Shown piece after piece: positions 26,470-45,195 of a DNA stretch of 64,000 nucleotides (positions are counted from its first letter, which is position 1; every line of letters starts with the position of its first letter). The notes below the pieces were generated by a model. It was given only the letters and a program-made list of their open reading frames with translations, was not told where the DNA came from and made no database searches. The DNA comes from an uncultured Desulfobacteraceae bacterium (lineage in GTDB: Bacteria > Desulfobacterota > Desulfobacteria > Desulfobacterales > JALSRD01). The position numbers and the translations under genes are program-made. Location of the stretch: NCBI GenBank assembly GCA_964442705.1, contig CAYUAQ010000002.1, forward strand, positions 5,959 to 69,958, given 5' to 3'.

Positions 26470-26886
26470 TCACCTCCTGCCGACCAGATAGGACCCCAGG
26501 ATCGCCTCGGCCTCGATCTCGACCAGGTGCTCCGGTCTCGCCAGGGCCTTGACTTCGGCCATGGCGATGACCGGCCGGATGTCCCTGAACCACTCCGAGT
26601 ACGCCTTCAGGTACTCCCGGCCGCGGCTGATGTCGGTGACATAAAAGCGCACCCGCACGACATTGGACATACGCGCACCGGCCTGCTGCAGGACGTCTTC
26701 GATCTTCTGGAGGATGATTTTCGTCTGCAGGTAGGCATCCCCCGGGGCCTCCACCTCGCCCCTGGCGTTGGTGGTCGTCGTGCCGCCCACCAGGACCATA
26801 TTGCCGACCCGCACCGCCCGGCTGTAACCGGCCTTGTCCTCGAAGGGCGCTCCGGATGAATAATTTTTCCGCTTCAACAATTCCAT
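26470..26886 (-). CDS. RidA/YjgF-family reactive imine/enamine deaminase-like protein
   Basis: 138 aa. YSRAVRVGNMVLVGGTT..., ...NVVRVRFYVTD..., ...LVEIEAEA are typical of the YjgF/RidA fold. Confidence 0.8.
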   Translation of the reverse strand: MELLKRKNYSSGAPFEDKAGYSRAVRVGNMVLVGGTTTTNARGEVEAPGDAYLQTKIILQKIEDVLQQAGARMSNVVRVRFYVTDISRGREYLKAYSEWFRDIRPVIAMAEVKALARPEHLVEIEAEAILGSYLVGRR

Positions 26887-26979
26887 GGATGGCTTCCACT
26901 TTCTCTCAATGCGTTTTGCAGAAATCCCGGCGGCGCCTGCTGCCGTGCGGCCATGCCGGCGCGAAACCGTTCCCCGGCG

Positions 26980-27708
26980 TCACGCGCGGTCGTCGAGCTG
27001 CGCAAATTCCTTCACCATGTTGTCGAGCAACCCGGCGGCCAGGTCATAAGGGTCCGGCAGCCGGGCGGTCTGCTCCAGCACGTTGCGGACCCCGGCCACG
27101 AAGGGGCCCGTTTTCCACTCGTGCCCGAATTCTTCGGCAAACCGGCGCACCATGTCCCGGGTGTATTCCGGGTGAAACTGCAGGCCGACCACCGGTCTGC
27201 CCGCCAGGACAAAGGCCTGGTTGGGGGTGGGCGGACTGCTGGCCAGCCGCACACCCCCGGGCGGCAGCGAAAAATGGTCCGCGTGCCAGTGGAAGGTCAC
27301 AAAGGGGTCGGCAACATCGCGAAACAGGAAAGAGCGGCGGCCCTCATCCGTCAAGTGCACGGGATACCACCCGATCTCCTCCTGTTCGCTGGGAAAAACC
27401 CGTCCCCCCAGGATCTCGGCCAGCAGCTGGGCACCGAAGCAGACGCCCAGCACGATCTTTCCGCGATCCACCACTTCGGCAATGAACCGCTTTTCGTCCG
27501 TCAGCCAGGGATGGGCAGCTTCTTCCCAGACATGGGGAGCGCCCCCCATGACCATCAGCCAGTCGAAATCGTCCGGCTGCGGCAGGGCCTGGCCGCTGCA
27601 CAGGTATGTCTGCGCGAGGGAGTGCCCCCTCTCCCGTGCCCAACGTGTGATGTGGGTCCGGGAAAAATCCAGCGAGTCGTGCTCCAGCAGGTGAATTCTC
27701 ATGGTCAC
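26980..27708 (-). CDS. class I glutamine amidotransferase-like protein (possible gamma-glutamyl amide hydrolase)
   Basis: 242 aa. Nucleophile elbow VLGVCFGAQLLA and His/Glu in LQFHPE. Starts 12 nt after the AldDH stop. Confidence 0.8.
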   Translation of the reverse strand: MTMRIHLLEHDSLDFSRTHITRWARERGHSLAQTYLCSGQALPQPDDFDWLMVMGGAPHVWEEAAHPWLTDEKRFIAEVVDRGKIVLGVCFGAQLLAEILGGRVFPSEQEEIGWYPVHLTDEGRRSFLFRDVADPFVTFHWHADHFSLPPGGVRLASSPPTPNQAFVLAGRPVVGLQFHPEYTRDMVRRFAEEFGHEWKTGPFVAGVRNVLEQTARLPDPYDLAAGLLDNMVKEFAQLDDRA

Positions 27709-27720
27709 TGATTCCGCGGC

Positions 27721-29193
27721 TCACGGCCGGCTGCCGTATCGGTAGCGCAGGTCGTCGGTCATCACGCAGCGGCGGATGCGGGTAAACGAGCGCGGCCGGG
27801 TGTGGCCCTCGCCGTTGGTGGCGATGTGGAAAGAGACGTAGCCCTCCCCGGTGACGCCCACCCCGCCCAGGCCGCAGGCCCCGTTCTTTACGAAGGAGGC
27901 GCAGTCGGCGCGGCTGGCCATTTTCTGGATGTTCACCAAGCTGCTGGAGTGGATCGCCATGGTGTGTCCGAATCCCTGTTCGGCCGCCAGGGCCCGTTCG
28001 ATGGCCTGGTCCACGTCGAGGCAGCGCACCAGCGGCAGTATTGGCATGATCTGTTCGGTCCACACCAGGGGGTGGTCGGCATCGGTTTCCAGGATGACGA
28101 TCTGTACCTCGGGCCCCACCTCCAGGCCGATGGATTTCAGGATGAAGGCCGGTGACTTTCCGATGTAGTCCATGTTGATCACGCCGGGCGTGCCCGGCTC
28201 CCCGACTTCCTTGAAGATGTGCTTGAGCAGTGCTTCCCCCTGGGCCGCGTCGATCTCGTAGGCGCCATGCTCTTTCAGTTTGCGCTTCAACGGCTCCGCC
28301 ACCGCTTCGACCACGAAGATCTCCTTCTCGCTGGCGCAGGCGATGCAGTTGGAGAAGCCGGCACCCTGCACGATGCAGCTTGCGGCGCGGTCCAAGTCGG
28401 CGGTTTCGTCCACCACCACCGGCGGGTTGCCCGGACCGCCGGCGATGACCCGTTTGCCCGTCCGGGTGGCGAAATCCACCACCCCGTGACCGCCGGTGAC
28501 GGCGATCATGCCGATGTCGGGGTGGGTCATGAGATGCTGGGCCGAGGGCACCGAGGGCTCTTCCAGGCAGCACAGGCAGTTGGCCGGTCCGCCGGCTGCC
28601 GTGACGGCGGCGTTGAGGTCGCGGATCACCCGCGCCGACACCTCTTTAGTCCTGGGGTGGGGGTTGACCACCACGGTGTTGCCGCCGGCGAGCATCATGA
28701 CGGCGTTGAAGAGAATGCTGGGCGCCGCGTTGGTGACCGGGTGCACCGAGGCGATCACCCCCACCGGCAGCCGCTCGATGATGGTGACCCCCTTGTCGCC
28801 GGCGTAGACCTCGGGCGCCAGGTCCTCCATGCCCATGACCTCGCAGGCGGAGGTGTTCTTGCCCACGTTGTCCCCGGCCTTGCCGAGCCCGGTCTCTTCG
28901 AACTCCATGTTCCCGTAAATTTTGGCGTTTGCCCGTCCGGTCTCGCGAATGGCGTCAATCAGTCGCCCGCGCACCGCCAGCTGCAGGGCCACCAGTTTTT
29001 GCTGCGCCTGGCGGGCCGCCTGGATGCAGGCATCCATGTCCTGGAAAACACCGTCGGTGACGGTGCCTGTGGCGTCATCGCCGCCGGTTTCGCGTGTTTC
29101 GGCTGCGGGCGCAGGGTCGTTCTGCTCCTCCCGGGCGAGCCTGTCCACGACGGTTTCCACGATGCGTTCGATGAGTTTCTCGTCGAGTTTCAT
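27721..29193 (-). CDS. CoA-acylating aldehyde dehydrogenase (PduP/EutE type) with N-terminal encapsulation-peptide-like helix
   Basis: 490 aa. N-terminal amphipathic helix DEKLIERIVETVVDRLA plus a Pro/Ala/Gly/Asp linker. Catalytic-Cys region FSNCIACASEKE. C-terminus ...RSFTRIRRCVM, as in BMC aldehyde dehydrogenases. Confidence 0.9.
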   Translation of the reverse strand: MKLDEKLIERIVETVVDRLAREEQNDPAPAAETRETGGDDATGTVTDGVFQDMDACIQAARQAQQKLVALQLAVRGRLIDAIRETGRANAKIYGNMEFEETGLGKAGDNVGKNTSACEVMGMEDLAPEVYAGDKGVTIIERLPVGVIASVHPVTNAAPSILFNAVMMLAGGNTVVVNPHPRTKEVSARVIRDLNAAVTAAGGPANCLCCLEEPSVPSAQHLMTHPDIGMIAVTGGHGVVDFATRTGKRVIAGGPGNPPVVVDETADLDRAASCIVQGAGFSNCIACASEKEIFVVEAVAEPLKRKLKEHGAYEIDAAQGEALLKHIFKEVGEPGTPGVINMDYIGKSPAFILKSIGLEVGPEVQIVILETDADHPLVWTEQIMPILPLVRCLDVDQAIERALAAEQGFGHTMAIHSSSLVNIQKMASRADCASFVKNGACGLGGVGVTGEGYVSFHIATNGEGHTRPRSFTRIRRCVMTDDLRYRYGSRP

Positions 29194-29233: not shown

Positions 29234-30199
29234 TCACGAACGGCGGTCCTCCTTCTGCGGCCACAGCGAGGTGATCTGCGGCGCGTCCGTGCGATAGGTC
29301 AGCCGCTGGTCGACATCGTCTTCGCGGTAGAATTCGTTGGCCTTCTCCACACCCCGGTCGAACTTGGACATGCAGCGCATGGCCTTGTGGTTGTCGAGAA
29401 AGGCGATCTCGTGCACCAGCGCCCCCAGAAAAACGATGATGTGGCCGAAGGGGTCCACGAAGGACACCCCCTCGATGTCGATGATCACGTACTGGTCCGA
29501 AAGCGTGACGATGGGCGACCGCGGGGTGTCGCTGATCCCGATGGTCCGCACGCCGCACTGCTTGGCGTATTTCATCATCTCGATGGTACGCCGTGGGTAG
29601 CGCGGAAACGCCAGGACCACCATCAGGGTGTTGGGGGGCCCCTCGTTCAGGGCGTCGGTCAGTTCCCAGGAGAGGCTGGTGTCGACGGTCACGTCTTCGC
29701 GCACTTTTTTCAGCAGGTATCCGAAATGGTAGGCCAGTGTGGCCGAGGCCCGGTAGCCGACCACGTACACCCGCTCGGCGTCGAAAATCGTGCGGGCGAT
29801 CTTCCTGAACTCCTCTTCCGTAATCGAGGCCAGCATGTTCTGCAGGTTGGCGATGGCGTTCCGGCAGTAGCGCTGGATGGTGCTCCCCTCGTCGGAAACC
29901 GGGCGCGTGTGGGTCAGGCGCTCGGAACTGGTCAGTTCGGTGTGCAGCAGGGCCTTCATGTAGTGCAGAAAGTCGGCGTAGCCGGAAAATCCCAGGTCCA
30001 CGCTGAAACGGATGATGGTCGGTTCGCTGACGCCGCACTTTTCGGCGATCTCCCGTGCCGTCATCAGAAAGATGTTCTTGTAGTCACGCATGATCATGTC
30101 CGCCACCCGTCGCTTCTTGGGAGACAGGCGCGGATAGACTTGAATGATCCTGTCGAACAGGTCTTTCTTGGCTGACTTTATCTCTTCGCCCCGGGGCAT
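29234..30199 (-). CDS. RpiR/MurR-family transcriptional regulator (HTH_6 + SIS)
   Basis: 321 aa. HTH LMTAREIAEKCGVSEPTIIRFSVDLGFSGYADF, then a SIS-type sugar-isomerase-like fold (RVYVVGYRASATLA...). Confidence 0.85.
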   Translation of the reverse strand: MPRGEEIKSAKKDLFDRIIQVYPRLSPKKRRVADMIMRDYKNIFLMTAREIAEKCGVSEPTIIRFSVDLGFSGYADFLHYMKALLHTELTSSERLTHTRPVSDEGSTIQRYCRNAIANLQNMLASITEEEFRKIARTIFDAERVYVVGYRASATLAYHFGYLLKKVREDVTVDTSLSWELTDALNEGPPNTLMVVLAFPRYPRRTIEMMKYAKQCGVRTIGISDTPRSPIVTLSDQYVIIDIEGVSFVDPFGHIIVFLGALVHEIAFLDNHKAMRCMSKFDRGVEKANEFYREDDVDQRLTYRTDAPQITSLWPQKEDRRS

Positions 30200-30202
30200 T
30201 GG

Positions 30203-30820
30203 TCAATGATTCCTTCCATCCAGGGAAGCCAGTGCGGTTTCGGCCGCCTCCCTGGCGGCCTGGATGTCCGAGGTGGAACCGGCCAGGTAGACCCGGCCGC
30301 TGGCACCGTAGACACTGACATGGTTGATGGTGATGCCGGCGGCTTTTTCCGCCTCGTTGGCCGCGTACCCGGCATAGCCGGCCGGCACGACCTCCAGGAT
30401 GTAGAGCGTGTCGTCGCTCAGCGACAGGCTGGCCGCCCGGAAGCGGTTGACGATCTGGCTCATGTAAGGGTTCAGCCGCTCGATGACCTCCGAGGACAGA
30501 ATCTTTGGCCGCAGCCGGTCGGCCTCACTGCAGCCCAGGTAGTCCAGCACCACCTCGCCCGCCAGCCGCACGTCGTCCGGGTCGTCGGCGTGCACTTCCA
30601 GCATGCCGTAGCTGCGCTCCACCACCAGCGCGCCGGGGCGCACGTTGGCCCTTTTCATGACCGTGTCGGTGATGGTGTTGATCTCCATGCCGGGCGCGAT
30701 TTCCAGGAACAGGGCCGCCTGGCCCGTGACGGGGTAGTACCCGCGGGAAGCCGAACCGATATAGGCCACCATCTGTTTCTGGAGCTGGTCGATGAAGGCG
30801 AAGGCTCTCAGGTCGATCAT
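30203..30820 (-). CDS. BMC-T shell protein, CcmP/CsoS1D-like tandem permuted BMC domains
   Basis: 205 aa. LRAFAFIDQLQKQMVAYIGSASRGY...LEIAPGMEINTITD...VVERSYGMLEVH... and LEVVPAGYAGYAANEAEKAAGITINHV...GRVYLAG; this matches the CcmP-type pattern. Confidence 0.85.
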   Translation of the reverse strand: MIDLRAFAFIDQLQKQMVAYIGSASRGYYPVTGQAALFLEIAPGMEINTITDTVMKRANVRPGALVVERSYGMLEVHADDPDDVRLAGEVVLDYLGCSEADRLRPKILSSEVIERLNPYMSQIVNRFRAASLSLSDDTLYILEVVPAGYAGYAANEAEKAAGITINHVSVYGASGRVYLAGSTSDIQAAREAAETALASLDGRNH

Positions 30821-30899: not shown

Positions 30900-32105
30900 T
30901 CATATGCTCTTGAGCCACTCGCGCCTGTTGGGGCACACGGCCGTGACGGTGGTGCAGGCGGCGTTGCCGTCGCAGGCGCACTCGTGCTCGGCGTCTTGGT
31001 AGAAGCGCCCGTAGCAGAAATCGTGAATGGGCAGCGAGGTCTGGCAGTCCAGGATCAGCTCGCCGATCAGCCGGCCGATGACAGGCGCCAGGCCGAAACC
31101 GTGGCCGCAGAAACCCGTCACGAACACGAACCCGGGCACCTCCGAGGTGAGCCCCAGCACCGGGATGCCGTCCGAGGTCTGGGCGATGAGGCCCGACCAC
31201 ATGCGGATCACGTTGAGGTTCCTGAGCACCGGGAAATAATCGATGACCATCCGCGAAATGGCCGGCCCGATGTGGTGAAACAGCGGTTTGCCCCGGCGGT
31301 AGATGAACTGCTCGGTGCCCACGAAACCGCCCCAGAAGAAGGGTCCGTGCACCGTCTGCCGGCCGTAGAACAGCCCCCTGGCGTGCCCCACCATCTGCGC
31401 GAAGAGCGGCGGGTAGGGCTCGGTGATCATGGCCTCGGAAAAAATAGGGCGCATGGGAAAATCCAGCCCCACCATGTTGGCGATGCGCCGGCCGGCCACC
31501 CCGGCGGCGTTGACCACCACTTCGGTTTCAAAAACGTGTTTGTCGGTCACCACCGCGCTCACGCGTCCCTTGCGCAGCCGGATGCGGTGCACCTCCTCCT
31601 GGGTGTAGAAGCGCGCCCCCAGGCTCTTGGCCTTCTTGAAGTAGCCGTAAGTCACCAGGAAGGGATTGACGTGGCCATCCGTGGGACAGAAGCTGGCGCC
31701 CACGACCTTTTCTCCCACGTAGGGGTTGATCTCCAGCACCTGGCGGCGGTCGAGCATCTCCAGCTCCAGGCCCGCTTTCTTCTGGTTCTCCACCGCGTTT
31801 CGCATCAGATCCAGCTCTTCCTCGCAGGTGCACAGCCGCAGGTTTCCCTGGCGCACGTACTCCACGTCCATGCCCAATTCCTCGTGCAGCTGGCCGTACA
31901 TGCGGATGCTCTCCATGGCCAGCGGCATTTCCTTGAGGTTGCGGGCGGACTGGCGCACACCGCCGCCGGTGCTGCCGGATGCCTCGCCGCCGATGTCGGA
32001 CTTTTCGATAACCACCGGCTTCAATCCGGCCTTGGCCAGGTTGTAGGCGATGGCGCATCCCATGACGCCGCCGCCGATGATGACCGTGTCGGCTTTCTCG
32101 GTCAT
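30900..32105 (-). CDS. FAD-dependent amine/amino-acid dehydrogenase, DAO family (SoxB/HcnC/OoxB-like catalytic subunit)
   Basis: Start at MTEKADTVIIGGGVMGCAIAYNLA (32105, GGAGG RBS); the 88-aa upstream extension of the track ORF is rejected. 401 aa with a Cys-rich C-terminal tail. Confidence 0.85.
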   Translation of the reverse strand: MTEKADTVIIGGGVMGCAIAYNLAKAGLKPVVIEKSDIGGEASGSTGGGVRQSARNLKEMPLAMESIRMYGQLHEELGMDVEYVRQGNLRLCTCEEELDLMRNAVENQKKAGLELEMLDRRQVLEINPYVGEKVVGASFCPTDGHVNPFLVTYGYFKKAKSLGARFYTQEEVHRIRLRKGRVSAVVTDKHVFETEVVVNAAGVAGRRIANMVGLDFPMRPIFSEAMITEPYPPLFAQMVGHARGLFYGRQTVHGPFFWGGFVGTEQFIYRRGKPLFHHIGPAISRMVIDYFPVLRNLNVIRMWSGLIAQTSDGIPVLGLTSEVPGFVFVTGFCGHGFGLAPVIGRLIGELILDCQTSLPIHDFCYGRFYQDAEHECACDGNAACTTVTAVCPNRREWLKSI

Positions 32106-32131: not shown

Positions 32132-32797
32132 TCAGCTGTTGGCAAAAACCTGCAGGCGAATGGGCCGCACCGGACCCCGGGCGGTGGTGGGGTCGATGTC
32201 TCCGGGTGCCAAGCCCAACTCCTCGGTCAGGATGCGCGCCACCAGCGTCTGGCAGGTCTGCCCCTGGCACAGCCCCATGCCGGCCCGGGTGATGCGCTTG
32301 ATGCCGTTTAACGTATGCATGCCGTTGCGGATGGCTTCCTTGATCTCCCCCTTGGTGATCTCCTCGCATCGGCAGATGACCAGGTCGTCGTCAGGGTCGC
32401 GGGTCTGCCCGCCGGTATCGGCCCCATCCGATGCGGCCGCCGGCGCCGCCGGGGTCGGTTCCCCCTTGAGCTGCCGGAAGCGCCGGATGACGCGCTCAAC
32501 GATCTCATCGAGCTGCGCCTCGGTAAACCCGTCTGCAGCATCCGCCGCGTCCCCGCCGGATGGCTTCTCCGGCGTTTCCGGCTCTTTGGAGTCCGTCGCC
32601 GGATCGGCGGACTCTTCCTCCGGCGAAGGGGCAGGAACGCTTTTCCCCGAGGCCACCGTTTTGACGCGAATGCCGTGCTCCCGAATCAGATCGGCGGCCG
32701 CCGAAGAGATACGGGCCCCCCCGGGGACTTCGATTTCCTTCTGTCCGGACCTCACCAGGTGCCGGACTTGCTCGGCGAATATGAAAACAGGTGCCAT
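32132..32797 (-). CDS. BFD-like [2Fe-2S] protein with N-terminal EutQ-N-like motif and internal encapsulation-peptide-like helix
   Basis: 221 aa. C-terminal ICRCEEITKGEI...GMGLCQGQTC (BFD-type). The central helix EAQLDEIVERVIRRFRQL is flanked by low-complexity Pro/Ala/Glu/Asp linkers. Confidence 0.75.
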   Translation of the reverse strand: MAPVFIFAEQVRHLVRSGQKEIEVPGGARISSAAADLIREHGIRVKTVASGKSVPAPSPEEESADPATDSKEPETPEKPSGGDAADAADGFTEAQLDEIVERVIRRFRQLKGEPTPAAPAAASDGADTGGQTRDPDDDLVICRCEEITKGEIKEAIRNGMHTLNGIKRITRAGMGLCQGQTCQTLVARILTEELGLAPGDIDPTTARGPVRPIRLQVFANS

Positions 32798-32836: not shown

Positions 32837-33217
32837 TTACTTTCCGGACTTCTTCGAACGCCGCGCCGACGGCCTGGCCTTTTTCGCTCGTGCGCCGGCC
32901 CCTGCGCCCCGGGCCTTGCGGTTTCCGGCGGGCGCCGCAGCCTCGGCCGGCTGCCCAACGGCGGCATCGATGTCGTCGGAAGGCCGCGGGATCACGTGCA
33001 CCGACACCACCTGTCCGACGCGCTCGCAGGCGGCGCTGCCGGCGTCGACGGCGGCCTTGACGGCCCCCACATCGCCGCTCACCATGACGGCCACCAGGCC
33101 GCCCTTGACCTTCTGTCGCCCCAGAAATTTCACCCGGGCGGCCTTCACCATGGCGTCCGCCGCCTCGATGGCGCCCACCAGTCCGTGGGTCTCGATCATT
33201 CCCAGTGCCTGCTGCAT
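32837..33217 (-). CDS. BMC-H shell protein (PduA/EutM type) with polybasic C-terminal extension
   Basis: 126 aa. [29 protein letters not shown]...VSVHVIPRP canonical BMC domain, plus a tail ending [28 protein letters not shown]. Confidence 0.92.
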
Positions 33218-38902: not shown

Positions 38903-39430
38903 TCATCCGGCCGCCGCCGGCGGCCGGCCGTTTTTCAAACGAATGGCACGGGCCTGCATGGACCAATCCAGCGGCACCTCGATGGTCACCGTGGCGGTCT
39001 GGTCCATTTTTTTTCCCTGCCGCACCGCCGCCACACGGGCGTCGCCCAGTTCCCGCCCGGACCGGTCCAGGGCCGTGACAACGTCACCCTCCTCCGGCAG
39101 GGGCAGGTACTCGTAAGGCATCATCACGCTGGCGCGGCCGTCGCCGGGACCCTCGTCGACCAGGAAAATGGCCTGTCCCGGACAGATGTACACGCAGGTC
39201 CGGCAGGCTACGCACTTTTCGCCGTCCAAGTGCGGGATGCCGGTGATGTCGTCGCCCACGACGATGGCGCCGAACTTGCAGCTGGTTTCACACGGGTTGC
39301 AGGGAATGTCCTGCAGGCACTCGATGCAGGCCACCGGTCCCTTGCGGCGGCGTTCGGCTGAGGGCACTCCCGGCGCCTCCAGGAGTTCTTCTTCGGAAAG
39401 GTAGCCCGTAACAGCGGAATCATGCCCCAT
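38903..39430 (-). CDS. ferredoxin-like Fe-S subunit of the amine dehydrogenase complex
   Basis: 175 aa. Cys motifs CIECLQDIPCNPCETSC and CVACRTCVYICP. Overlaps the upstream subunit gene by 11 nt. Confidence 0.7.
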   Translation of the reverse strand: MGHDSAVTGYLSEEELLEAPGVPSAERRRKGPVACIECLQDIPCNPCETSCKFGAIVVGDDITGIPHLDGEKCVACRTCVYICPGQAIFLVDEGPGDGRASVMMPYEYLPLPEEGDVVTALDRSGRELGDARVAAVRQGKKMDQTATVTIEVPLDWSMQARAIRLKNGRPPAAAG

Positions 39431-40523
39431 CTGACTGCCCTTTCATTATGGCGTTGAGGTACTGCTTGGCCTTGCCGCGCCGCTCGCCGTGGCTGCCGCT
39501 GCGCAGCCCCTGGATGCTCTTGTACTGCCGGCCGCGCTGCTCGAGAAAGGACTTCTTGTCGAGGTAGCCCAGGCTGTGGGCGATGGCCAGCCCGGCGATG
39601 CGGCCCTCGATGATGGCGGTGCTGGCCTCCTCGATGCCGGAGATATCGCCGGCGACAAAAATACCCTCGATGGAGGTCTCCATGTTCATGTCATGGGCCG
39701 GTATGCGGCCGCCCAGGGCCGGCACGTGGGCCATGCGGCAGCCGGCCATGCGCAGCAGCTGGGTCATGGGGTTGAGACCTACGGCGATGCAGATGGTGTC
39801 GACCTCGAAATGCTTCTCGGTACCGGCGACAGGTTTCCAGGCCTCGTCCACCTGGACCACCGTGGCGCCCTCCACGCGGTCCGTCCCGTGGGCCGCCTTG
39901 ATGGTGTGCGACATCAGGAAGGGCACCCCCACGCGGGCAATCTTGGCGGCGTGCACGGCATAGGCGCCGATGCGGGGCGCCGCGTCGATGACCGCCGCCA
40001 CGCGGCAGCCAGCCTGCAGCATCTGGTAGCTCACGATGACACCCACGTTGCCCGAACCGATCATGAGGATGTCATTACCCGGCCGGATGCCGTGGATATT
40101 GGCCATGGTCTGTGCCGCGCCAGCGCCGATGACCCCGGGCAGGGTCCAGCCCGGGAAAGGGATCATGTTCTCGGAGGCGCCGGTGGCCACCAGGGTCTTT
40201 TCGCCGCGCACCTGCTCGATGCGGTCACCGATCATGACGTTCATGGCGTGGTTTTCGTAGATGCCCAGTACGACCGAATTGAGGGAGACCTCGACACCCC
40301 GTTCGCGGGCCTCGGCCAGCAGCATGCCGCCGATGTTGAACCCGCGCTCGCGGGCGTGGTGCTCCTGGGATCCGAAGAACTTGTGGATCTGCTTGAACAG
40401 CTGACCGCCCGGGCGTTCGTTTTCGTCGAACACGATCGCCTGCACCCCGTGGCGGGCGGCTTCCACGGCAGCGGCCAGCCCGGCCGGCCCGGCCCCTACG
40501 CATATCATTTCATATCGGCGCAT
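39420..40523 (-). CDS. FAD/NAD(P)-binding pyridine-nucleotide-disulfide-oxidoreductase-like subunit (HcnB/OoxA/SoxA-core-like)
   Basis: 367 aa. Two dinucleotide folds (ICVGAGPAGLAAA; MIGSGNVGVIV) and FVAGDISG near the C-terminus. No folate/GcvT-like domain. Confidence 0.8.
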   Translation of the reverse strand: MRRYEMICVGAGPAGLAAAVEAARHGVQAIVFDENERPGGQLFKQIHKFFGSQEHHARERGFNIGGMLLAEARERGVEVSLNSVVLGIYENHAMNVMIGDRIEQVRGEKTLVATGASENMIPFPGWTLPGVIGAGAAQTMANIHGIRPGNDILMIGSGNVGVIVSYQMLQAGCRVAAVIDAAPRIGAYAVHAAKIARVGVPFLMSHTIKAAHGTDRVEGATVVQVDEAWKPVAGTEKHFEVDTICIAVGLNPMTQLLRMAGCRMAHVPALGGRIPAHDMNMETSIEGIFVAGDISGIEEASTAIIEGRIAGLAIAHSLGYLDKKSFLEQRGRQYKSIQGLRSGSHGERRGKAKQYLNAIMKGQSDGA

Positions 40524-40526
40524 GAA

Positions 40527-40844
40527 TCACTCCCTGGTCTTTGGGGGGCCCTTACCTCTCTGGGTTTCCACCACCATGCCGGCCCGGAGGGGCTCGACGC
40601 AGGTGCGGATGTTGGGCTGTCCGTTGACCACCATGATGCAGTCGGTGCAGCGGCCGATGGCGCAGAACATGCCGCGCGGTTCGTTGCGCCGGGCCGTGTA
40701 ACGGTGAACCATGACACCGTTGCTGTGCAGGGCCACGGCGATGGGTTCGCCTTCGTACCCCTCCATGGTCCTGCCGTCGTAAGTGAACTCCACCCGCGGC
40801 CCCTTTTCAAACTGTCCGAGTATGGGATGCGCTTCGATTCTCAT
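40527..40844 (-). CDS. small [2Fe-2S] subunit (HcnA / SoxA-N-terminal-like, Fer2_4 type)
   Basis: 105 aa. FTYDGRTMEGYEGEPIAVALHSNGV...FCAIGRCTDCIMVVNGQPNIRTC. Confidence 0.8.
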   Translation of the reverse strand: MRIEAHPILGQFEKGPRVEFTYDGRTMEGYEGEPIAVALHSNGVMVHRYTARRNEPRGMFCAIGRCTDCIMVVNGQPNIRTCVEPLRAGMVVETQRGKGPPKTRE

Positions 40845-40889: not shown

Positions 40890-42185
40890 CTAGTAAAACC
40901 CGAAGGGTTCGCCGAAGGTGAAATTGGACCCGATCAGCGGGATGCCGGTCATGGCACAGATCTCCAAGGTCAGCGAACGCAAATCCTCGCGCTCCAGGCT
41001 GGTCAGCTTGGTCTTGCCGGCGGCCTTGGCCAGGATGACGGCCTCGTTGGTCATGGCCTGGATGTAGTTGGCCACCTGCCGGGCGGCGCGGTCCACGTCC
41101 AGGCGAAGTCGCTCTTCGGGATCCTGGGTGCCGATGCCGAAGGCGCAGCGCCCCTCGTGGCAGCGCAGGCAGACCACGCACCCCATGGCGATCATGGCGC
41201 CGGTGCCGATGGCCACCGCATCGGCCCCCAGTGCCAGGGCCTTGGCCACGTCGGCCCCGTCCTTGATGCCGCCCGAGACGATCAGGCTGACCTCTTCCTT
41301 GACACCCATGTCCTCCAGGGAGCGCACGGCCTGCACCAGGGCCGGCAGCGTGGGAATGCCCAGGTGGTTGGAGGCCACCACCGGCGCCGCGCCGGTGCCG
41401 CCCTCGGCGCCGTCGATGACGATGCCGTCCACCCCGGCCTTGACCGCGATCTTGACGTCTTCCCAGACGCGGCCGGCGGCGATCTTGATGAAAATGGGAA
41501 TCTCACCGTCGGTGACGTCCCGCAGTTCCTCCATCTTGAGGCACAGGTCGTCGGCCCCGAAGATGTCGCCGTGGCGGGGATGGCTGTGCAGGTCGATGCC
41601 CTCGGGCAGCTGCCGGAATTCGGCGATCTCCTTGGTGATCTTGCTGGCCATCAGGTGCCCCGAGAGGCCCGGCTTGGCGCCGATGCCCACGATGATCTCC
41701 AGGGCGTCGGTGGCCTCGATGTTGCGCAGCGTGAAGCCTATGCGGCTGGGCAGGATCTGCACCACCTGCTTGTAGGAGTTGGCGCGCTCCTCGGGCAGCA
41801 GGCCGCCCTCGCCGTTGTTGATGGAGGTGCCCACGATGTCCGTGGCCTTGGCCAGGGCGATCTTGGCCTCCTTGCTCAGGGCGCCGTAAGACATGCCCGA
41901 GATCATGATGGGGGTTTCGATGACCAGGGGCTTCTTGGCGAAACGGGCGCCCAGCACCGTGCGAGTCTGGCAGTCCTCGCGGTAAGTGTCGATGGACATG
42001 CGCGTGAGCTGCGACGGCAGGAAGGTCAGGTCGTCAAAGTGCGGCAGCTTGCGCGGGGTGCCGCATCCCCGGATGCGGTGCTTGCCCGCGCTGGCCTTGT
42101 ACTTGATCTCCGATATGGTCTCCGCCGACCACACGCCCCGCTGGACATCCTTGGCTCTGGGGGTCTTCTTCTCTTCTGCGGCCAT
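40890..42185 (-). CDS. glutamate-synthase FMN-domain-like protein (MgsC/GlxD-like)
   Basis: 431 aa. ISGMSYGALS, DGAEGGTGAAP, GGIKDGADVAKALALGADAV, Cys cluster CVVCLRCHEGRC. ATGA overlap with the upstream gene. Confidence 0.85.
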   Translation of the reverse strand: MAAEEKKTPRAKDVQRGVWSAETISEIKYKASAGKHRIRGCGTPRKLPHFDDLTFLPSQLTRMSIDTYREDCQTRTVLGARFAKKPLVIETPIMISGMSYGALSKEAKIALAKATDIVGTSINNGEGGLLPEERANSYKQVVQILPSRIGFTLRNIEATDALEIIVGIGAKPGLSGHLMASKITKEIAEFRQLPEGIDLHSHPRHGDIFGADDLCLKMEELRDVTDGEIPIFIKIAAGRVWEDVKIAVKAGVDGIVIDGAEGGTGAAPVVASNHLGIPTLPALVQAVRSLEDMGVKEEVSLIVSGGIKDGADVAKALALGADAVAIGTGAMIAMGCVVCLRCHEGRCAFGIGTQDPEERLRLDVDRAARQVANYIQAMTNEAVILAKAAGKTKLTSLEREDLRSLTLEICAMTGIPLIGSNFTFGEPFGFY

Positions 42186-42886
42186 TATCCCTGTGCCCTT
42201 CGTTTGTGGGTTGGTTTGAAAAGAACGTACTCGTGACGCCCATAGACCTTGGGTACGATGGTGTGGAAATCCTCCACGCCGTGTTCGACGCCGTATTTCG
42301 CGAACAGGGCTTCCAGTGCGCTTTTTTCGCTATCCTCGACGGGGATCAGGCGCACGTTGCCACCCAGTTTTTTCTCGGCCGCCGCGTCCATCACGTGGAT
42401 GCGGCCATTGTACATAGACTCGCCGATGCCCTCGCCCACGCTTCCCAGGATCACGATGCGCCCGCCCAGGGTCATCTTGCCGGCCCAACGCCCCACGTCG
42501 CCGCACACGATGAGCGTGCCGCCCTTCATGCCCCAGCCCGCCCGGCTGCCGGAGTTTCCCCGGATCACGATGGTGCCGCCCACCATGGAGGGCGCCGCGT
42601 TGCTGCCGGTGTTCATCTCCACGATGATCTCGCCGGCCGACATGTTGTCGCCGGTGTACCAGCCGGTGTTGCCCTCGACCACGATGGCGGGCCCCTCCAG
42701 GAATCCGCCCGTGTAGAAGCCCGTGCTGCCGTGCACGGTGATTTTCCCTTCCCCCTTCAGGGCGGTGGCGAAGTTGTGGATGGAGTGGGGGTTGTCGACT
42801 TCGATCTGGGCCTCTGTCTTGATCAGCTCCCGCAGCCGGCGATTGACTTCCCGGGAGCTCATGCCTGCTATGTCTAAACGGACCAT
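42185..42886 (-). CDS. GXGXG-motif protein (glutamate synthase C-terminal-domain-like; MgsB/GlxC-like)
   Basis: Start at MVRLDIAGMSSREVNRRL (42886). Repeated beta-helix motifs (HGSTGFYTGGFLEG, EGNTGWYTGDNMSAG, RGNSGSRAGWGMKGG). Confidence 0.85.
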   Translation of the reverse strand: MVRLDIAGMSSREVNRRLRELIKTEAQIEVDNPHSIHNFATALKGEGKITVHGSTGFYTGGFLEGPAIVVEGNTGWYTGDNMSAGEIIVEMNTGSNAAPSMVGGTIVIRGNSGSRAGWGMKGGTLIVCGDVGRWAGKMTLGGRIVILGSVGEGIGESMYNGRIHVMDAAAEKKLGGNVRLIPVEDSEKSALEALFAKYGVEHGVEDFHTIVPKVYGRHEYVLFKPTHKRRAQG

Positions 42887-43773
42887 ACCCGTACTCCTCC
42901 TGGATCCATCTCCGTGGCATAGACGTCGGAGACGATGGGGGTTAAACAAATCTGTTCCGATCCCAGCAGTACCGTTCCGTCGCCCTTTTCGAAGAACAGT
43001 ACGGGCTTGATGCCCAGCCGGTCCCGCAGGGCGCCGATTTTGTCGGCGGTGGAGGCCAGGATGGTGAACACGCCGTCGAAGGTTTCCAGTCCCTGGTGAA
43101 GGGCCGCCTCCAGGTCCAGTCCCTTCTCCTTCATCTGGTGGGCCAGGAAGTGAACCGCCATCTCGGAGTCGTTGTTGGTCTTGAAGCGCACGCCCCAGCT
43201 CTCCATACGGCGGCGCATGTTGAAGTAGTTGGTGAACTGGCCGTTATGCACGATGGCCAGCTCGGGGTAGAGGTAGGAGACGAAGGGGTGCGCGAAATTG
43301 ATGTTCTCCACACTCTCGGTGGCCAGGCGCACGTGGCCGATGCCGTGGGTGCCCAGGGTGGGCGGAATGTGGTGCTGCTCCTGCAGCTCGGCGGCCGACC
43401 CCTCGTCCTTGTATACCTTGATGCGGCGGCCCAGGGAGTGCACGCAAAGTTCCGGGTGGTCGTCGATGGCCCGGTGCAGGTCGGCCATGCGGGCGTCATC
43501 CATGTCCACGCAAGCCTCGTAGAAGGTGAAAACCCCCCGTCCCTGGTAGCAGCGCTCTTCGGAGATGCGCCCGTAGGCGCCGATGACCTGCTCCAGCTTT
43601 TCACGGTGCTCTGGTGCCGTCAGCGATACCCGCAGGTCGACGGTGTCCCGGTTTTCGTAGACCGCGATCCCCGTGGCGTCCCGGCCGCGGTGGATGAGTT
43701 CCTTGAGCATGCTGATCAGATCGTTTCCCAGCGTGGGGGAATCCTTGGCAATCAGCCCGGCGATACCGCACAT
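42874..43773 (-). CDS. class II (Ntn) glutamine amidotransferase-like protein (MgsA/GlxB-like)
   Basis: 299 aa. Met-Cys N-terminus MCGIAGLIAK (Cys nucleophile after Met removal). GHVRLAT, HNGQFTNY. Confidence 0.85.
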   Translation of the reverse strand: MCGIAGLIAKDSPTLGNDLISMLKELIHRGRDATGIAVYENRDTVDLRVSLTAPEHREKLEQVIGAYGRISEERCYQGRGVFTFYEACVDMDDARMADLHRAIDDHPELCVHSLGRRIKVYKDEGSAAELQEQHHIPPTLGTHGIGHVRLATESVENINFAHPFVSYLYPELAIVHNGQFTNYFNMRRRMESWGVRFKTNNDSEMAVHFLAHQMKEKGLDLEAALHQGLETFDGVFTILASTADKIGALRDRLGIKPVLFFEKGDGTVLLGSEQICLTPIVSDVYATEMDPGGVRVWSV

Positions 43774-43854
43774 GGTGGGCCTCCCGTATCGGCTTGAAAT
43801 GGCTCCGGGCGTCTGCGATCGCCCCCGGAGCAGTGATTTGTTTTCCGCCGCGCC

Positions 43855-45195
43855 TTAAAGGTGGTAGGCGTACTCGTTGAACTCCCAGTCGGTGACGGCG
43901 GTGCGGAAGCGCTCCACCTCGTGCTCCTTGAGCGCCACGAAGGCCTGCACCAGTTCCGGCCCCAGGGCCTCGCACAGGACCTTGTCGGCCTTGAAATCCG
44001 CCAGGGCGTCCTGCAACCAGAAGGTGACGGTCTCCAGGGTGCCGGGTTCGGCCCCGTAGACATCGTCCGGAGCCGGCTCGCCAGGCTCGATCTTGTTCTC
44101 GATGCCGTCCAGGCCGGCCGCCAGCACCGCCGCCAGCACCAGGTAGGGGTTGGCCGAGGCGCAGGGGCCGCGGTTTTCCACCCGCGTGGCCGATCCGCGC
44201 TCGTCGGGCACCCGGCAGTAGACGGTGCGGTTGTCCCAGCCCCAGGCGAGGTAGAAGGGGCAGAAGGCCCCCAGCACGAAGCGCCGGTAGGAGTTGATGG
44301 TGGGCGCCAGGATGGCGGACATCCCCTTGGCGTGTGCCATCTGGCCGCCCAGGAAGTACCGCAGCAGATCGGACACGCCGTGGTCGCCGGACGGGTCGTC
44401 GAAGAGGTTGCGGCCCGAGTCGGGGTCGAACAGCGAGGCGTGGATGTGGTAGCCGCTGCCGCCGTTGTCGCCCTTGGGCCGTCCCATGAAGGTCAGCAGC
44501 AGGTCGTGCATGGCGGCCACCTCCTTGGACACGTACTTGAAGGTGAAGGTCTGGTCCGCCATTTTCAGGGCGCTGTCGTACTTCCAGTTGATCTCGAACT
44601 GCCCGGGGAAAAATTCGTGGTTGAGGTAGATGATGTCCAGCCCCAGTTCGATGAACAGGTTCTGGAACTCGCGCAGCAGGCCCTTGGGGTCGACCACCGG
44701 GTTGACCTGGTAGACGCAGGAGGGGCTGGCGTTGTATGGCTGCCCGTCGGCATCGCCGCCCTGGTGGAAGAGGAAAAACTCCAGCTCCGAGGCCACCATG
44801 GGTTTGAGGTTCAGGTCTTCGTAGCGCTGGATGATGCGCTGCAGGACGTTGCGCGGGTCAACCCCCAGGGGTTTGCCGTCGGGCCCGTAGGCGTTACCGA
44901 TGAAACGCGCCGTGCCCTCCATGTAAGGCAGCACGGCGAAGGTGTCCGGGTCGGGCTTGATGGTCATGTCGCGCCACTGGATTTCATCTCCCAAGCCGGT
45001 GCCCATGGCCACATCGTTGGCGAAATCGACGGCATAGGTGGCCGTCACGTGGTTGCAGCCCTCCTCCAGCACTTGCTCCAGGCGCCGCGCCGGCACCAGC
45101 TTGCTGCGGCAGATGCCGTACAGATCCGGGAAGTCGATGCGCAGCGAATCGATGTTGGCGGCCTCTATCTGGGCCTTGATTTCCTGTAAGTCCAC
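43855..45195 (-). CDS. glutamine-synthetase-family ligase (GmaS/GlnT/PuuA-like gamma-glutamyl-amine synthetase candidate)
   Basis: 446 aa, GTG start with a GGAAGGGGG RBS. GS motifs SELEFFLF, NHEFFPGQFEINW, GSGYHIHASL, PTINSYRR, RVENRGPCASANPYL. First gene of the BMC operon. Confidence 0.85.
   Translation of the reverse strand: MDLQEIKAQIEAANIDSLRIDFPDLYGICRSKLVPARRLEQVLEEGCNHVTATYAVDFANDVAMGTGLGDEIQWRDMTIKPDPDTFAVLPYMEGTARFIGNAYGPDGKPLGVDPRNVLQRIIQRYEDLNLKPMVASELEFFLFHQGGDADGQPYNASPSCVYQVNPVVDPKGLLREFQNLFIELGLDIIYLNHEFFPGQFEINWKYDSALKMADQTFTFKYVSKEVAAMHDLLLTFMGRPKGDNGGSGYHIHASLFDPDSGRNLFDDPSGDHGVSDLLRYFLGGQMAHAKGMSAILAPTINSYRRFVLGAFCPFYLAWGWDNRTVYCRVPDERGSATRVENRGPCASANPYLVLAAVLAAGLDGIENKIEPGEPAPDDVYGAEPGTLETVTFWLQDALADFKADKVLCEALGPELVQAFVALKEHEVERFRTAVTDWEFNEYAYHL

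Follow-up and report, generated by a model that had tools for sequence, protein, structure and literature searches.

The catalogue of bacterial microcompartment (BMC) loci by Sutter et al. (2021, Nat Commun 12:3809, PMC8217296) lists in its Supplementary Data 2 a type named MIC6, a metabolosome with an incomplete core that was represented by three loci from anaerobic Deltaproteobacteria and was assigned no substrate or function. The enzymes listed for it are an aldehyde dehydrogenase bearing an encapsulation peptide at its N-terminus, a pfam04324 [2Fe-2S] protein, and a pfam01266 oxidoreductase whose C-terminus has a BMC-specific extension, about 30 aa long, containing four Cys; the listed shell has two BMC-H, a BMC-P, two distinct CcmP-clade BMC-T(dp), a GrpU-type BMC-H(p), and a PduT-type BMC-T(s) that adjoins PduS (PMC8217296). 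By its list of model names, the catalogue has MIC6-specific hidden Markov models for the DAO and BFD proteins only (HMM01266_1_mic6 and HMM04324_1_mic6), and the catalogue text on MIC6 mentions no glutamine synthetase (GS)-like protein, MgsABC-like enzyme, split-SoxA block or TRAP transporter (PMC8217296). We examine here a locus with these genes in a 64,000-nt stretch of DNA from an uncultured Desulfobacteraceae bacterium (GenBank assembly GCA_964442705.1, contig CAYUAQ010000002.1, positions 5,959 to 69,958 of the forward strand); "the window" means this whole stretch, and coordinates are given within it.

MIC6 has been an orphan BMC type for which the 2021 catalogue named no aldehyde-generating enzyme. 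What is new here is a conserved upstream enzyme block with a transporter, the predicted reassignment of its "GS" and "GOGAT" (glutamate synthase) as relatives of gamma-glutamyl-amine ligases and of N-methylglutamate (NMG) synthase, and a testable pathway; the conserved enzyme set thus gives a type labelled "function unknown" a specific, bench-testable NMG-like hypothesis. The mechanism that we put forward, tentatively and as something close to an even call, is that an anionic primary amine would be gamma-glutamylated, converted to an N-alkylglutamate and oxidised to a free, toxic aldehyde within the BMC, the aldehyde then becoming acyl-CoA. Our confidence in any particular substrate is low.

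Membership in MIC6

The locus (26470-45195) comprises 23 open reading frames (ORFs), all on the minus strand, with intergenic distances of -13 to +195 bp; an earlier note made from the letters of this DNA had likewise described 23 co-directional genes with short gaps or overlaps. In transcription order they encode a GS-family ligase, a class-II amidotransferase, a GXGXG subunit, a Glu_synthase FMN subunit, a Fer2_4 protein, a Pyr_redox_2 protein and a ferredoxin (genes 1-7); a BMC-H, a permuted BMC-H, a BMC-P, a PduS-like protein, a PduT-like BMC-T, EutJ and a 284-aa protein (8-14); a BMC-T, a basic-tailed BMC-H, a Fer2_BFD + SO_alpha_A3 protein (BFD/A3 below), a DAO protein and a second BMC-T (15-19); and an RpiR regulator, an acylating aldehyde dehydrogenase (AldDH), a class-I amidotransferase and a Rid-family protein (20-23). 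Families were assigned with Pfam and NCBIfam, and with PDB sequence searches, Foldseek and AlphaFold2 for selected proteins. Independent public gene calls on related contigs reproduce the gene models and lengths of the operon.

Every feature that the catalogue lists for MIC6 is found in this locus, and nothing contradicts membership. The pfam01266 protein (DAO, 7.1e-73) carries the four-Cys extension as its C-terminal tail (ECACDGNAACTTVTAVCPN), and pfam04324 is represented by the Fer2_BFD match (2.4e-14) of the protein at 32132-32797. The hosts agree as well: the closest loci, with 96-98% PduS identity, are in metagenome-assembled genomes (MAGs) of Desulfobacteraceae, and other members come from Desulfobacterales, Syntrophobacteraceae and Thermodesulfobacteriota. 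Judged by its genes, the window locus is almost certainly a MIC6 locus. The locus type is therefore already catalogued, and the window is a further example of an uncharacterised type. The earlier note had left open whether the locus maps to a catalogue type, and the answer is now MIC6; its claim that the enzyme core is unlike that of any characterised BMC stands, the type matched being one that has no assigned substrate. MIC2, the only catalogue type described with pfam00120, was rejected because its hosts, enzymes (malate/lactate dehydrogenase) and minimal shell all differ. Our literature searches found no paper tying MIC6 or any BMC to these enzymes; searches that paired BMC or MIC6 with glutamine synthetase, glutamate synthase, sarcosine oxidase, N-methylglutamate or gamma-glutamyl enzymes returned nothing relevant.

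Known here from its genes, MIC6 resembles the PDU, EUT, GRM and RMM metabolosomes in its shell architecture, its encapsulation-peptide acylating aldehyde dehydrogenase, its PduS/PduT pair and its EutJ. It differs from them in having no B12 lyase, glycyl-radical enzyme, aldolase or aminotransferase as aldehyde generator, and neither phosphotransacylase nor alcohol dehydrogenase; the generator proposed here is instead a flavin dehydrogenase acting on a glutamate-tagged amine. A Pfam scan of 55 window ORFs found no B12 lyase, glycyl-radical enzyme, aldolase, PduL/Pta or Fe/Zn alcohol dehydrogenase, and within this set it agrees with the earlier note, which had reported the signature metabolosome enzymes, the phosphotransacylase and the alcohol dehydrogenase as absent. 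The 55 ORFs were all gene-sized candidates of the operon region plus most flanking ORFs of at least 180 aa; overlapping alternative frames and ORFs <180 aa were left out. Not finding a phosphotransacylase or an alcohol dehydrogenase fits the "incomplete core" label.

Conservation across genomes

The PduS-like protein was searched against one genome per GTDB species, which yielded 69 loci, and 28 window proteins were compared to these by tblastn. Thirty-nine of the 69 loci are of the window type; their hosts are Desulfobacteraceae, Desulfosarcina, Desulfococcaceae, Desulfobacula, the Olavius Delta-1 symbiont, a Syntrophobacteraceae MAG and a Thermodesulfobacteriota MAG. The remaining 30 (Maridesulfovibrio, Desulfopila, Mailhella and others) belong to other BMC types and have just PduS, PduT, BMC-H and BMC-P in common with the window locus. 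Eighteen MIC6 loci extend about 9 kb or more upstream of PduS: the FMN subunit is in register in all of these and the GS-like gene in 17 (the exception is L019), and the seven genes ahead of the shell genes form a colinear block in 17 of the 18 related loci with enough flank. Identities are high, given that the loci span several families: 78-98% for the FMN subunit, 69-97% for DAO and 54-97% for the GS-like protein. Of the DAO homologues in the database, the 120 clusters listed are all 80-97% identical. With 39 species-level genomes and at least 120 DAO clusters, the type is far commoner than three loci, and colinearity over dozens of genomes rules out chance. Among the loci retrieved with PduS, the enzyme genes stay with the shell genes in relatives, the outcome of a synteny survey that the earlier note had proposed.

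A possible objection is that the upstream seven genes and the BMC genes are independent neighbours with no functional link, the MIC6 signature enzyme lying elsewhere in the genome. The catalogue text does describe MIC6 without the upstream genes, and L019, from a complete-genome MAG, has a truncated locus. Nevertheless the fixed order, the short gaps or overlaps and the colinearity across Desulfobacterota families at 54-98% identity speak against independence, as does the finding of no convincing minus-strand terminator in the intergenic gaps of the upstream block. The SoxA-like alpha subunit described below is moreover split over the upstream block (Fer2_4, Pyr_redox_2) and the shell-embedded BFD/A3-DAO genes, which ties the two halves together. 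We find independence scarcely credible.

In L019 itself (CP070746.1, a complete MAG chromosome) the MIC6 locus is truncated at both ends, with GATase2 cut to 193 aa and no GS-like, DAO, second BMC-T, RpiR or AldDH gene within 10 kb; this could be decay, rearrangement or an assembly artefact. Genes downstream are variable in L079 (15138-20761), L080 (15338-17884) and L081 (14689-18548). The extra genes of some MIC6 loci encode an OYE-family flavoprotein, an Amidohydro_3 protein and another acylating aldehyde dehydrogenase, which has an encapsulation peptide of its own and is 58% identical to the first; these genes may reflect substrate variants.

The GS-family ligase and the MgsABC-like trio

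The glutamine-synthetase-family ligase of the earlier note, encoded by the first gene of the operon (446 aa; 43855-45195, minus strand like all genes of the operon) is clearly of that family by its C-terminal domain (Gln-synt_C 3.7e-103), its N-terminal domains scoring below cut-off. It falls below the cut-offs for GlnA, type III GS and gamma-glutamylputrescine synthetase, with scores of 320 against TIGR03105 (cut-off 470) and 268 against NF045547 (cut-off 650). We aligned it with Bacillus GlnA, GmaS/GlnT of Paracoccus and Cupriavidus, PuuA from E. coli, and a GS-family ligase encoded in an RpiR/TRAP cluster on a Paracoccus plasmid. It has no FDGSS ammonium loop and shows a PuuA-like insertion in its place (ATYAVDFANDVAMGTGLGDE versus ASVFAMDILGNVVEEAGLGQE), and the flap Glu of Bacillus GlnA (GYEAP) is replaced by Phe. 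This flap position is aromatic in the amine ligases: Tyr in PuuA, Trp in GmaS, and Phe in the ligase of the Paracoccus cluster, which combines RpiR, TRAP, aldehyde dehydrogenase and alcohol dehydrogenase genes. Loop loss, insertion and Phe are common to the window protein and all 16 aligned MIC6 orthologues. We predict from these residues that the GS-like protein is a gamma-glutamyl-amine ligase, not a glutamine synthetase; reading genes 1-4 as true GS/GOGAT was rejected because the GS active-site residues (FDGSS loop, flap Glu) are lost. Identity to GmaS is 32%, and the loop is PuuA-like, not GmaS-like.

The substrate-side loop of the ligase comes in three subtypes among MIC6 loci (CNHVTATYAVDFANDVAMG, LGFAQAIYAIHLANDVAAE and INCAKPTFSLDLNYNIPEG; orthologues L002-L063) whose other enzymes are 70-98% identical, and amine specificity may differ between loci accordingly.

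The next three genes are those that the earlier note had called a three-gene split glutamate-synthase-like set, and their families are GATase class II, GXGXG and Glu_synthase FMN. The first encodes an MgsA/GlxB-like class-II (Ntn) amidotransferase of 299 aa (42874-43773; GATase_6/7), which starts with MCGIAG and so has the catalytic Cys1, and which is 30% identical over its full length to Paracoccus MgsA. The second is the MgsB/GlxC-like GXGXG subunit (42185-42886; PF01493 3.2e-21), 34% identical to Paracoccus GlxC and 233 aa long here as in public gene calls. The third is the MgsC/GlxD-like FMN subunit of 431 aa (40890-42185; Glu_synthase 6.8e-103), which is 47% identical to Paracoccus MgsC versus 36% to the FMN domain of E. 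coli GltB. Together the trio is colinear with, and homologous over full length to, MgsABC of the canonical Paracoccus alcaliphilus N-methylglutamate cluster (30, 34 and 47%), and the split "glutamate synthase" looks like a relative of that enzyme, N-methylglutamate synthase. The three best plasmid homologues of the FMN subunit that we inspected all belong to glnT-mgsABC methylamine clusters; mgdABCD stands next to two of these clusters, and C1/folate genes (dmm, purU or folD) occur in every one.

The FMN subunit also has a four-Cys motif, C-x2-C-x2-C-x4-C, found in the window protein and 18 of 18 orthologues. It aligns with the 3Fe-4S motif of GltB (C-x5-C-x4-C) and occurs in none of three proteobacterial MgsC proteins, which have a 16-residue insertion there instead. 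With this Fe-S motif the MIC6 enzyme should exchange electrons with a partner.

The DAO flavoprotein and the split SoxA-like dehydrogenase

The multi-subunit FAD/Fe-S amine dehydrogenase of the earlier note corresponds to several families present in the locus (DAO, Pyr_redox_2, Fer2_4, Fer2_BFD + SO_alpha_A3), and three of the proteins correspond to consecutive segments of the SoxA model TIGR01372. Segment 10-99 is matched by the HcnA-like [2Fe-2S] protein (105 aa; 40527-40844; Fer2_4 5.7e-29), segment 171-503 by the FAD/NAD(H)-binding oxidoreductase (367 aa; 39420-40523; Pyr_redox_2 1.5e-31), and segment 523-596 by the BFD/A3 protein (221 aa; 32132-32797; SO_alpha_A3 8.9e-12), in which a conserved 48-aa N-terminal domain is followed by a Pro/Ala/Glu-rich linker. 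The Pyr_redox_2 protein scores 131.9 bits against the model, and its best PDB match is the alpha subunit of heterotetrameric sarcosine oxidase. On this evidence the "amine dehydrogenase" is best described as a DAO subunit plus a SoxA alpha subunit split into three genes. Pfam found no GCV_T (folate-binding) domain, SoxD or SoxG in any of the 23 operon proteins. A ferredoxin-like protein with two Cys clusters (175 aa; 38903-39430; Fer4 families) keeps its Cys motifs in orthologues and has a C-terminal domain of unknown fold.

We propose the DAO-family flavoprotein dehydrogenase (401 aa; 30900-32105) as the aldehyde-generating signature enzyme. Among PDB sequences its top match is Pyrococcus L-proline dehydrogenase, beta subunit (1y56_B, 2.4e-51), with glycine oxidases and SoxB next; its scores against PuuB (81 bits) and SoxB (92 bits) do not discriminate. 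The C-terminal sequence ECACxGNAACTTVTAVCPNKREWLKSI is conserved in the 17 aligned orthologues with complete C-termini, L002 being cut by a contig end.

Terminal extensions separate the enzymes of the locus into two groups. AldDH begins with M-K-LDEKLIxxIVExVVxRL, a conserved amphipathic helix followed by a linker, and the 284-aa flavoprotein-like protein likewise has a conserved N-terminus (KEEIRKIVREVLKEKGLL), a helix resembling an encapsulation peptide, plus linker; further conserved extensions are the N-terminal domain and linker of BFD/A3, the four-Cys tail of DAO and a C-terminal tail on the Pyr_redox_2 protein. We count those of AldDH, the flavoprotein-like protein, BFD/A3 and DAO as encapsulation signals. 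The GS-like protein has no terminal extension relative to the non-BMC homologues in the alignment, and the three Mgs-like subunits align with those of Paracoccus from one terminus to the other. On this evidence aldehyde formation and consumption would take place inside the shell and the two activation steps in the cytosol.

The Pyrococcus L-proline dehydrogenase (1Y56), HcnABC, opine oxidases and sarcosine oxidase are comparable in that a DAO protein has Pyr_redox_2, [2Fe-2S] and ferredoxin partners. They differ from the MIC6 set in that similarity is low (68-178 bits), the MIC6 subunits are scattered over a BMC operon, the MIC6 DAO has a BMC-specific four-Cys tail, and its BFD/A3 protein has an added N-terminal domain.

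These likenesses bear on a different account, in which the BMC houses a free-amino-acid dehydrogenase (turning, for instance, glycine into glyoxylate, sarcosine into formaldehyde or proline into glutamate semialdehyde), Rid hydrolyses the imino acid, and the seven upstream genes are a GS and an archaeal-type split GOGAT with an NAD(P)H/Fe-S donor that capture the released ammonia by ordinary assimilation. The best matches of DAO, L-proline dehydrogenase beta and glycine oxidases, are what such an enzyme would give, and the Fer2_4 + Pyr_redox_2/BFD + DAO architecture is one that we take to match HcnABC and the archaeal proline dehydrogenases. Imino acids are known substrates of Rid proteins, the Fe-S motif of GOGAT is present in the FMN subunit, and the net stoichiometry is the same as in the N-alkylglutamate model. 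The ligase and the trio speak against this account: the FDGSS loop and flap Glu are lost in every GS-like orthologue, and the FMN subunit is nearer MgsC than GltB in a trio that keeps the mgsABC order. We also know of no precedent and no obvious rationale for a dedicated GS/GOGAT pair heading a catabolic BMC operon, as would be the case in 17 of 18 loci. We hold it to be distinctly improbable.

The aldehyde dehydrogenase and accessory enzymes

The CoA-acylating aldehyde dehydrogenase (490 aa; 27721-29193) exceeds the NCBIfam cut-off for its model (PRK15398, 519.7 bits versus 403) and is indeed, as the earlier note had it, of the PduP/EutE type. Before it comes an RpiR/MurR-family regulator (HTH_6 + SIS; 29234-30199), found at the same position in related loci, and after it a class-I amidotransferase-like protein (240 aa; 26980-27702; GATase 1.1e-16) and a Rid-family (RidA-like) imine/enamine deaminase (138 aa; 26470-26886; Ribonuc_L-PSP 1.5e-25). 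The Rid gene is downstream in all seven loci inspected (the window, L075 and L077-L081). The class-I amidotransferase, possibly a gamma-glutamyl-amide hydrolase, matches Peptidase_C26 weakly (20.6 bits, below cut-off, with no significant stretch); it is accessory, as it is missing in locus L080 and was not detected in several other loci.

The PuuABCD (E. coli, putrescine) and Eto (Chromohalobacter and Phaeobacter, ethanolamine) systems resemble MIC6 in having a ligase with a PuuA-like loop and an aromatic flap residue, along with DAO-family, Aldedh and class-I amidotransferase-like proteins, and the Eto operon also has RpiR and TRAP (PMC10132767). They differ in having no MgsABC-like enzyme, shell or Fe-S wiring, and their aldehyde dehydrogenases are non-acylating. 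One could accordingly imagine a Puu-type route within a shell, in which the glutamyl tag protects one amino group while the DAO complex oxidises a distal amine or alcohol; the gamma-glutamyl aldehyde becomes a CoA ester, the class-I amidotransferase removes the tag, and the GOGAT-like set only recovers nitrogen. The four families are all there (the GS with PuuA-like loop, the DAO at 26% identity to PuuB, Aldedh, and the class-I GATase with its weak Peptidase_C26 match), some loci have a second encapsulation-peptide aldehyde dehydrogenase, and a gamma-glutamyl ethanolamine operon with RpiR and TRAP exists in Phaeobacter (PMC10132767), with a similar cluster on a Paracoccus plasmid. Yet such a route yields no glutamine, leaving no role for the strictly conserved MgsABC-like trio with its active Ntn Cys1, and it depends on a class-I amidotransferase that is dispensable. 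The DAO partners are moreover SoxA-, Hcn- and proline-dehydrogenase-like, typical of enzymes acting at an amino-acid alpha-nitrogen, and the aldehyde dehydrogenase is of the acylating type, not PuuC-like. We regard the Puu-type route as unlikely.

Operon start and the TRAP transporter

The probable operon start lies at 45257-45425 (minus strand), where the elements were read directly from the sequence and their functions are predicted. A terminator-like hairpin (45425-45407) lies 3' of the upstream Fer4_11 gene, and is followed by a promoter-like site TTGACA-17-TATTAC at about 45322-45294 on the minus strand. Between this site and the GS-like start codon the leader is AT-rich and contains a perfect inverted repeat of 7 bp (ATGAAAT-N9-ATTTCAT, about 45279-45257), which may serve the operon-encoded RpiR regulator as operator. 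A ribosome-binding site, AAGGAAGGGGG, precedes the GTG start at 45195. Scans with sigma-70, sigma-54 and terminator consensus sequences gave no signal above chance.

Directly upstream of the operon are a molybdopterin oxidoreductase (45447-48082, minus strand), cytoplasmic-looking and without a twin-arginine signal, and a Fer4_11 subunit. The molybdoenzyme scores 335 bits against PhsA and 320 bits against Fdh-alpha, below every NCBIfam cut-off, and the same enzyme (77-82% identity) adjoins the operon in four other loci (L009, L014, L020 and L032). Because of the hairpin and promoter-like site before the GS-like gene, the molybdoenzyme looks like a separate transcription unit. A role for it as a formate dehydrogenase finishing a C1 route was rejected: it is below all cut-offs, PhsA is its best match, and it is apparently transcribed separately.

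At the other end, dctPQM genes follow the Rid gene after a 308-bp gap, outside the coordinates of the earlier note (DctP 25103-26161, DctQ 24496-24984 and DctM 23175-24476, all minus strand and matched by the Pfam families of those names). A TRAP transporter is downstream in six of seven inspected loci. Of the homologues of the binding protein, the top 120 share 70-96% identity; several are on contigs with MIC6, and none of these 120 showed another genomic context. By its linkage, the TRAP transporter appears to belong to the MIC6 system and to extend it past 26470, and it is the probable substrate importer. In L079 an oligopeptide-type ABC transporter replaces TRAP, and in L044, a Thermodesulfobacteriota MAG, dctPQM (17874-20861) lie inside the operon between the RpiR and AldDH genes.

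Aligned with SiaP, the binding protein keeps the Arg-147 equivalent (MKIRV versus LKLRV). This Arg is present in 96.8% of DctP-type binding proteins and selects a carboxylate, more rarely a sulfonate or phosphate; the ethanolamine binder Csal_0678 is without it (PMC4646407). From the retained Arg, the expected substrate would be an amine that also bears an acidic group. Eto-type TRAP uptake of ethanolamine came into question because RpiR, TRAP and GS-like genes also occur together on a Paracoccus plasmid and in Phaeobacter, and was rejected as a default on three grounds. The Eto binding protein lacks the Arg-147 equivalent (PMC4646407) that the window protein has; identity between the window protein and its counterpart in the RpiR/TRAP cluster of the Paracoccus plasmid is only 20%; and the window protein scores 61 bits against 4uab, compared with 90 bits against a lactate binder. 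The Paracoccus cluster (L070, Paracoccus sp. TOH plasmid p3) comprises RpiR, N-formylglutamate amidohydrolase, TRAP, GS-family ligase, aldehyde dehydrogenase and Fe-alcohol dehydrogenase genes, a set that matches the gamma-glutamyl ethanolamine operon of Phaeobacter and Chromohalobacter.

The transporter also bears on a special case of the N-alkylglutamate model, a true methylamine NMG pathway in which monomethylamine gives formaldehyde and then formyl-CoA, with the shell containing the formaldehyde. Formaldehyde is a classic toxic intermediate, the nearest FMN-subunit homologues in the plasmid collection lie in methylamine clusters, and a formate-dehydrogenase-alpha-like molybdoenzyme stands upstream here and in four other loci. 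Against this, a carboxylate-selecting Arg in the TRAP binding protein would be needless for methylamine, the ligase has the large PuuA-like loop and not the GmaS form, and the locus has no C1 or folate genes; the molybdoenzyme, for its part, is below the NCBIfam cut-offs with PhsA as its best match, and is set apart by the hairpin and promoter-like site. We consider methylamine a very improbable substrate.

Proposed pathway

The reaction missing from MIC6 would, on our proposal, be the oxidative C-N cleavage of an N-alkylglutamate, and the pathway an anaerobic, shell-enclosed relative of the NMG pathway for a larger substrate. The logic of the latter is documented: gamma-glutamylmethylamide synthetase, NMG synthase and NMG dehydrogenase lead to glutamate and formaldehyde (PMC6237917). 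The family assignments, active-site and cluster motifs, encapsulation signals and synteny on which we build are data; the substrates and products of each step, the direction of electron flow, the partners of the redox subunits and the choice of encapsulated proteins are predictions from them.

First, TRAP would import a primary amine with an acidic group. Second, the GS-family ligase, whose type is read from its active-site residues, would use ATP to join the amine to the gamma-carboxyl of glutamate. Third, as homology and motifs suggest, the Ntn-amidotransferase subunit of the MgsABC-like enzyme would cleave the gamma-glutamyl amide, and the FMN subunit would reductively join the freed amine to 2-oxoglutarate, giving the N-alkylglutamate. 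Fourth, DAO with Fer2_4, Pyr_redox_2, BFD/A3 and the ferredoxin would oxidise the N-alkyl C-N bond, and hydrolysis of the imine, possibly assisted by Rid, would give glutamate and an aldehyde; with no folate-binding domain, the aldehyde would be released free, hence the need for a shell. Fifth, the encapsulated acylating aldehyde dehydrogenase would convert the aldehyde to acyl-CoA with formation of NADH. Sixth, electrons from NADH and the flavoprotein would leave the lumen via PduS and the PduT/GrpU Fe-S pores, replacing the alcohol dehydrogenase, while large metabolites (N-alkylglutamate and CoA esters) would cross through the two gated trimers of the CcmP type. In sum, amine, 2-oxoglutarate, ATP and CoA would give acyl-CoA and glutamate, with the amine nitrogen ending in glutamate. 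A shell acting as an electron-conducting barrier would explain the missing phosphotransacylase/alcohol-dehydrogenase core.

The likeness to the NMG pathway lies in a GS-family ligase without an ammonia site, a synthase whose GATase, GXGXG and FMN subunits are encoded in the same order, a dehydrogenase of the DAO/SoxB type that has SoxA-like partners, and, on our model, the sequence of amine, gamma-glutamyl amide, N-alkylglutamate, and aldehyde plus glutamate. The differences are several. The MIC6 host is anaerobic and its FMN subunit has the four-Cys motif missing in MgsC; SoxA is in three genes and has lost the folate (GCV_T) domain, SoxD, SoxG, folD and purU are missing, and extra ferredoxin and four-Cys modules are present. 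The MIC6 aldehyde would go to a shell-enclosed acylating dehydrogenase and not to tetrahydrofolate, and the carboxylate-type site of the TRAP importer argues against methylamine.

A number of points weigh against this pathway. Everything past family assignment is inferred from homology and synteny, and the PduS query of our survey is itself shell-associated, which places shell-less relatives of the enzyme block outside the sample. The GS-like protein is about equally similar (32-35% identity) to each of GlnA, GmaS, PuuA and the Paracoccus-cluster ligase, so that it forms a group of its own and gives no hint of its substrate. In having the Fe-S motif, though in this respect only, the FMN subunit resembles that of a genuine glutamate synthase, and the Fer2_4, Pyr_redox_2 and Fer4 proteins encoded directly after it could be its electron donor and no part of the dehydrogenase. 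DAO is 25% identical to the MgdA/SoxB-type subunit and 26% to PuuB, and its sequence does not settle whether its substrates are secondary amines or free amino acids. The roles of the class-I amidotransferase, Rid, EutJ and the flavoprotein-like protein are loosely assigned, and with no phosphotransacylase the recycling of CoA goes unexplained. Finally, activation with ATP is costly for a sulfate reducer, and a transaminase would serve for many amines.

In its widest form the proposal makes MIC6 an organelle widespread among marine and sediment sulfate reducers, free of B12 and glycyl radicals, and the first BMC with a flavin/Fe-S amine dehydrogenase as aldehyde generator, one fed with N-alkylglutamates via gamma-glutamylation and a redox-wired relative of NMG synthase and enclosed in an electron-conducting shell (PduS, PduT, GrpU); put so broadly, we see it as possible and lean somewhat toward doubt. 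If true, BMC chemistry would extend to flavin-dependent amine oxidation, and anaerobic amine catabolism could proceed with neither B12 nor a glycyl radical. The PduS, PduT and GrpU Fe-S shell components would gain a concrete role in electron export, and the nitrogen and carbon of amines would have a newly recognised sink in anoxic sediments and in the symbiosis of the gutless worm Olavius, where the locus occurs.

Shell proteins, PduS, EutJ and the 284-aa protein

Pfam and PDB matches confirm the seven shell genes of the earlier note (two BMC-H, a permuted BMC-H, a PduT-like BMC-T, two CcmP/CsoS1D BMC-T and a BMC-P), with both the BMC and EutN models matched. One of its subtype calls has to be revised: the permuted BMC-H, taken there as EutS/PduU-like, is of the GrpU type. 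This protein (103 aa; 38038-38349; PF00936 2.5e-8) has 4olo (1.2e-19) and 4olp (GrpU) as best PDB matches and carries an Fe-S pore motif, RGLCPQ, of which G-x-C-P-Q is conserved. The PduA-type BMC-H (92 aa; 38545-38823; PF00936 E = 1.2e-27) is 88-100% identical in related loci, and the BMC-P pentamer has 97 aa (37695-37988; EutN_CcmL (PF03319) E = 1.4e-25). The PduT-type BMC-T (183 aa; 35730-36281; PF00936 1.2e-45 in two stretches) has a pore Cys in PICAGK that orthologues keep.

Both double-permuted BMC-T proteins have 205 aa, score weakly against Pfam BMC, and have orthologues tagged PF27545 (CsoS1D_N). The one at 33294-33911, identified as CcmP/CsoS1D type by PDB sequence search, matches HO-5816 (208 bits), CcmP (188 bits) and CsoS1D (152 bits); cross-matches put the second, distinct one (30203-30820; weak PF00936) at about 42-46% identity to it. 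The other BMC-H (126 aa; 32837-33217; PF00936 E = 1.1e-27) has a C-terminal tail of 25-40 Lys/Arg-rich residues past the BMC domain, conserved in most orthologues (L006, L011, L012, L015, L017, L020, L021, L025, L031, L063 and L077). This second BMC-H gene is missing in some loci, for example L044.

The PduS-like NADH-binding Fe-S flavoprotein and the EutJ-like ATPase of the earlier note both hold up. The former (443 aa; 36367-37698) has Complex1_51K, SLBB, Fer4_17 and RnfC_N domains and scores 239 bits against the RnfC subfamily model; the latter, an actin-fold ATPase of 273 aa (34912-35733), scores 300 bits against NCBIfam EutJ (cut-off 182). The accessory BMC protein of 284 aa (34011-34865) has no Pfam match and was modelled with AlphaFold2 (pLDDT 79.6) and compared with Foldseek. 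It has three parts: the conserved amphipathic N-terminal helix with linker, a core, and a small C-terminal domain, a motif of which recurs at the N-terminus of the BFD protein. The modelled core finds PPC decarboxylase, UbiX, EpiD and DmrB (E about 1e-4, TM about 0.6 per target), suggesting a flavoprotein-like HFCD fold. It had been considered as the missing phosphotransacylase and was rejected as such, the fold search giving the HFCD flavoproteins and not PduL. There is also a weak match (52 bits) to TIGR02536 (eut_hyp), a protein of unknown function from eut loci.

Flanking genes

A glutamate dehydrogenase gene (21204-22661, plus strand) converges on the dctM end, and its product could complete the cycle between glutamate and 2-oxoglutarate in the proposed pathway; the gene has no such position in locus L078, so the linkage is not conserved. 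The stretch at 26-48 kb, with the BMC operon and the molybdoenzyme genes upstream of it, has a G+C content of 0.62-0.67, as against 0.56-0.59 for the TRAP genes and 0.54-0.58 for 48-56 kb, a contrast that could reflect horizontal acquisition or a difference in codon usage. An IclR regulator is encoded at 48069-48887. Farther on, a shell-free plus-strand cluster (52506-62100) looks like one for amine or aldehyde catabolism, with a TctC/TctA transporter, two class-III aminotransferases, two short-chain dehydrogenases and a tungsten-type aldehyde:ferredoxin oxidoreductase; the dehydrogenases and aminotransferases lie at 55.9-60.3 kb on the plus strand, apart from the operon. An Amidohydro_3 gene follows at 62222-63805 (minus strand). 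Near the other end of the window, a minus-strand Hmc-like redox complex (671-6862) consists of a multihaem class III cytochrome c, a Fer4_11 protein, an NrfD-like membrane protein and an Fe-S protein; Hmc-like complexes are typical of sulfate reducers.

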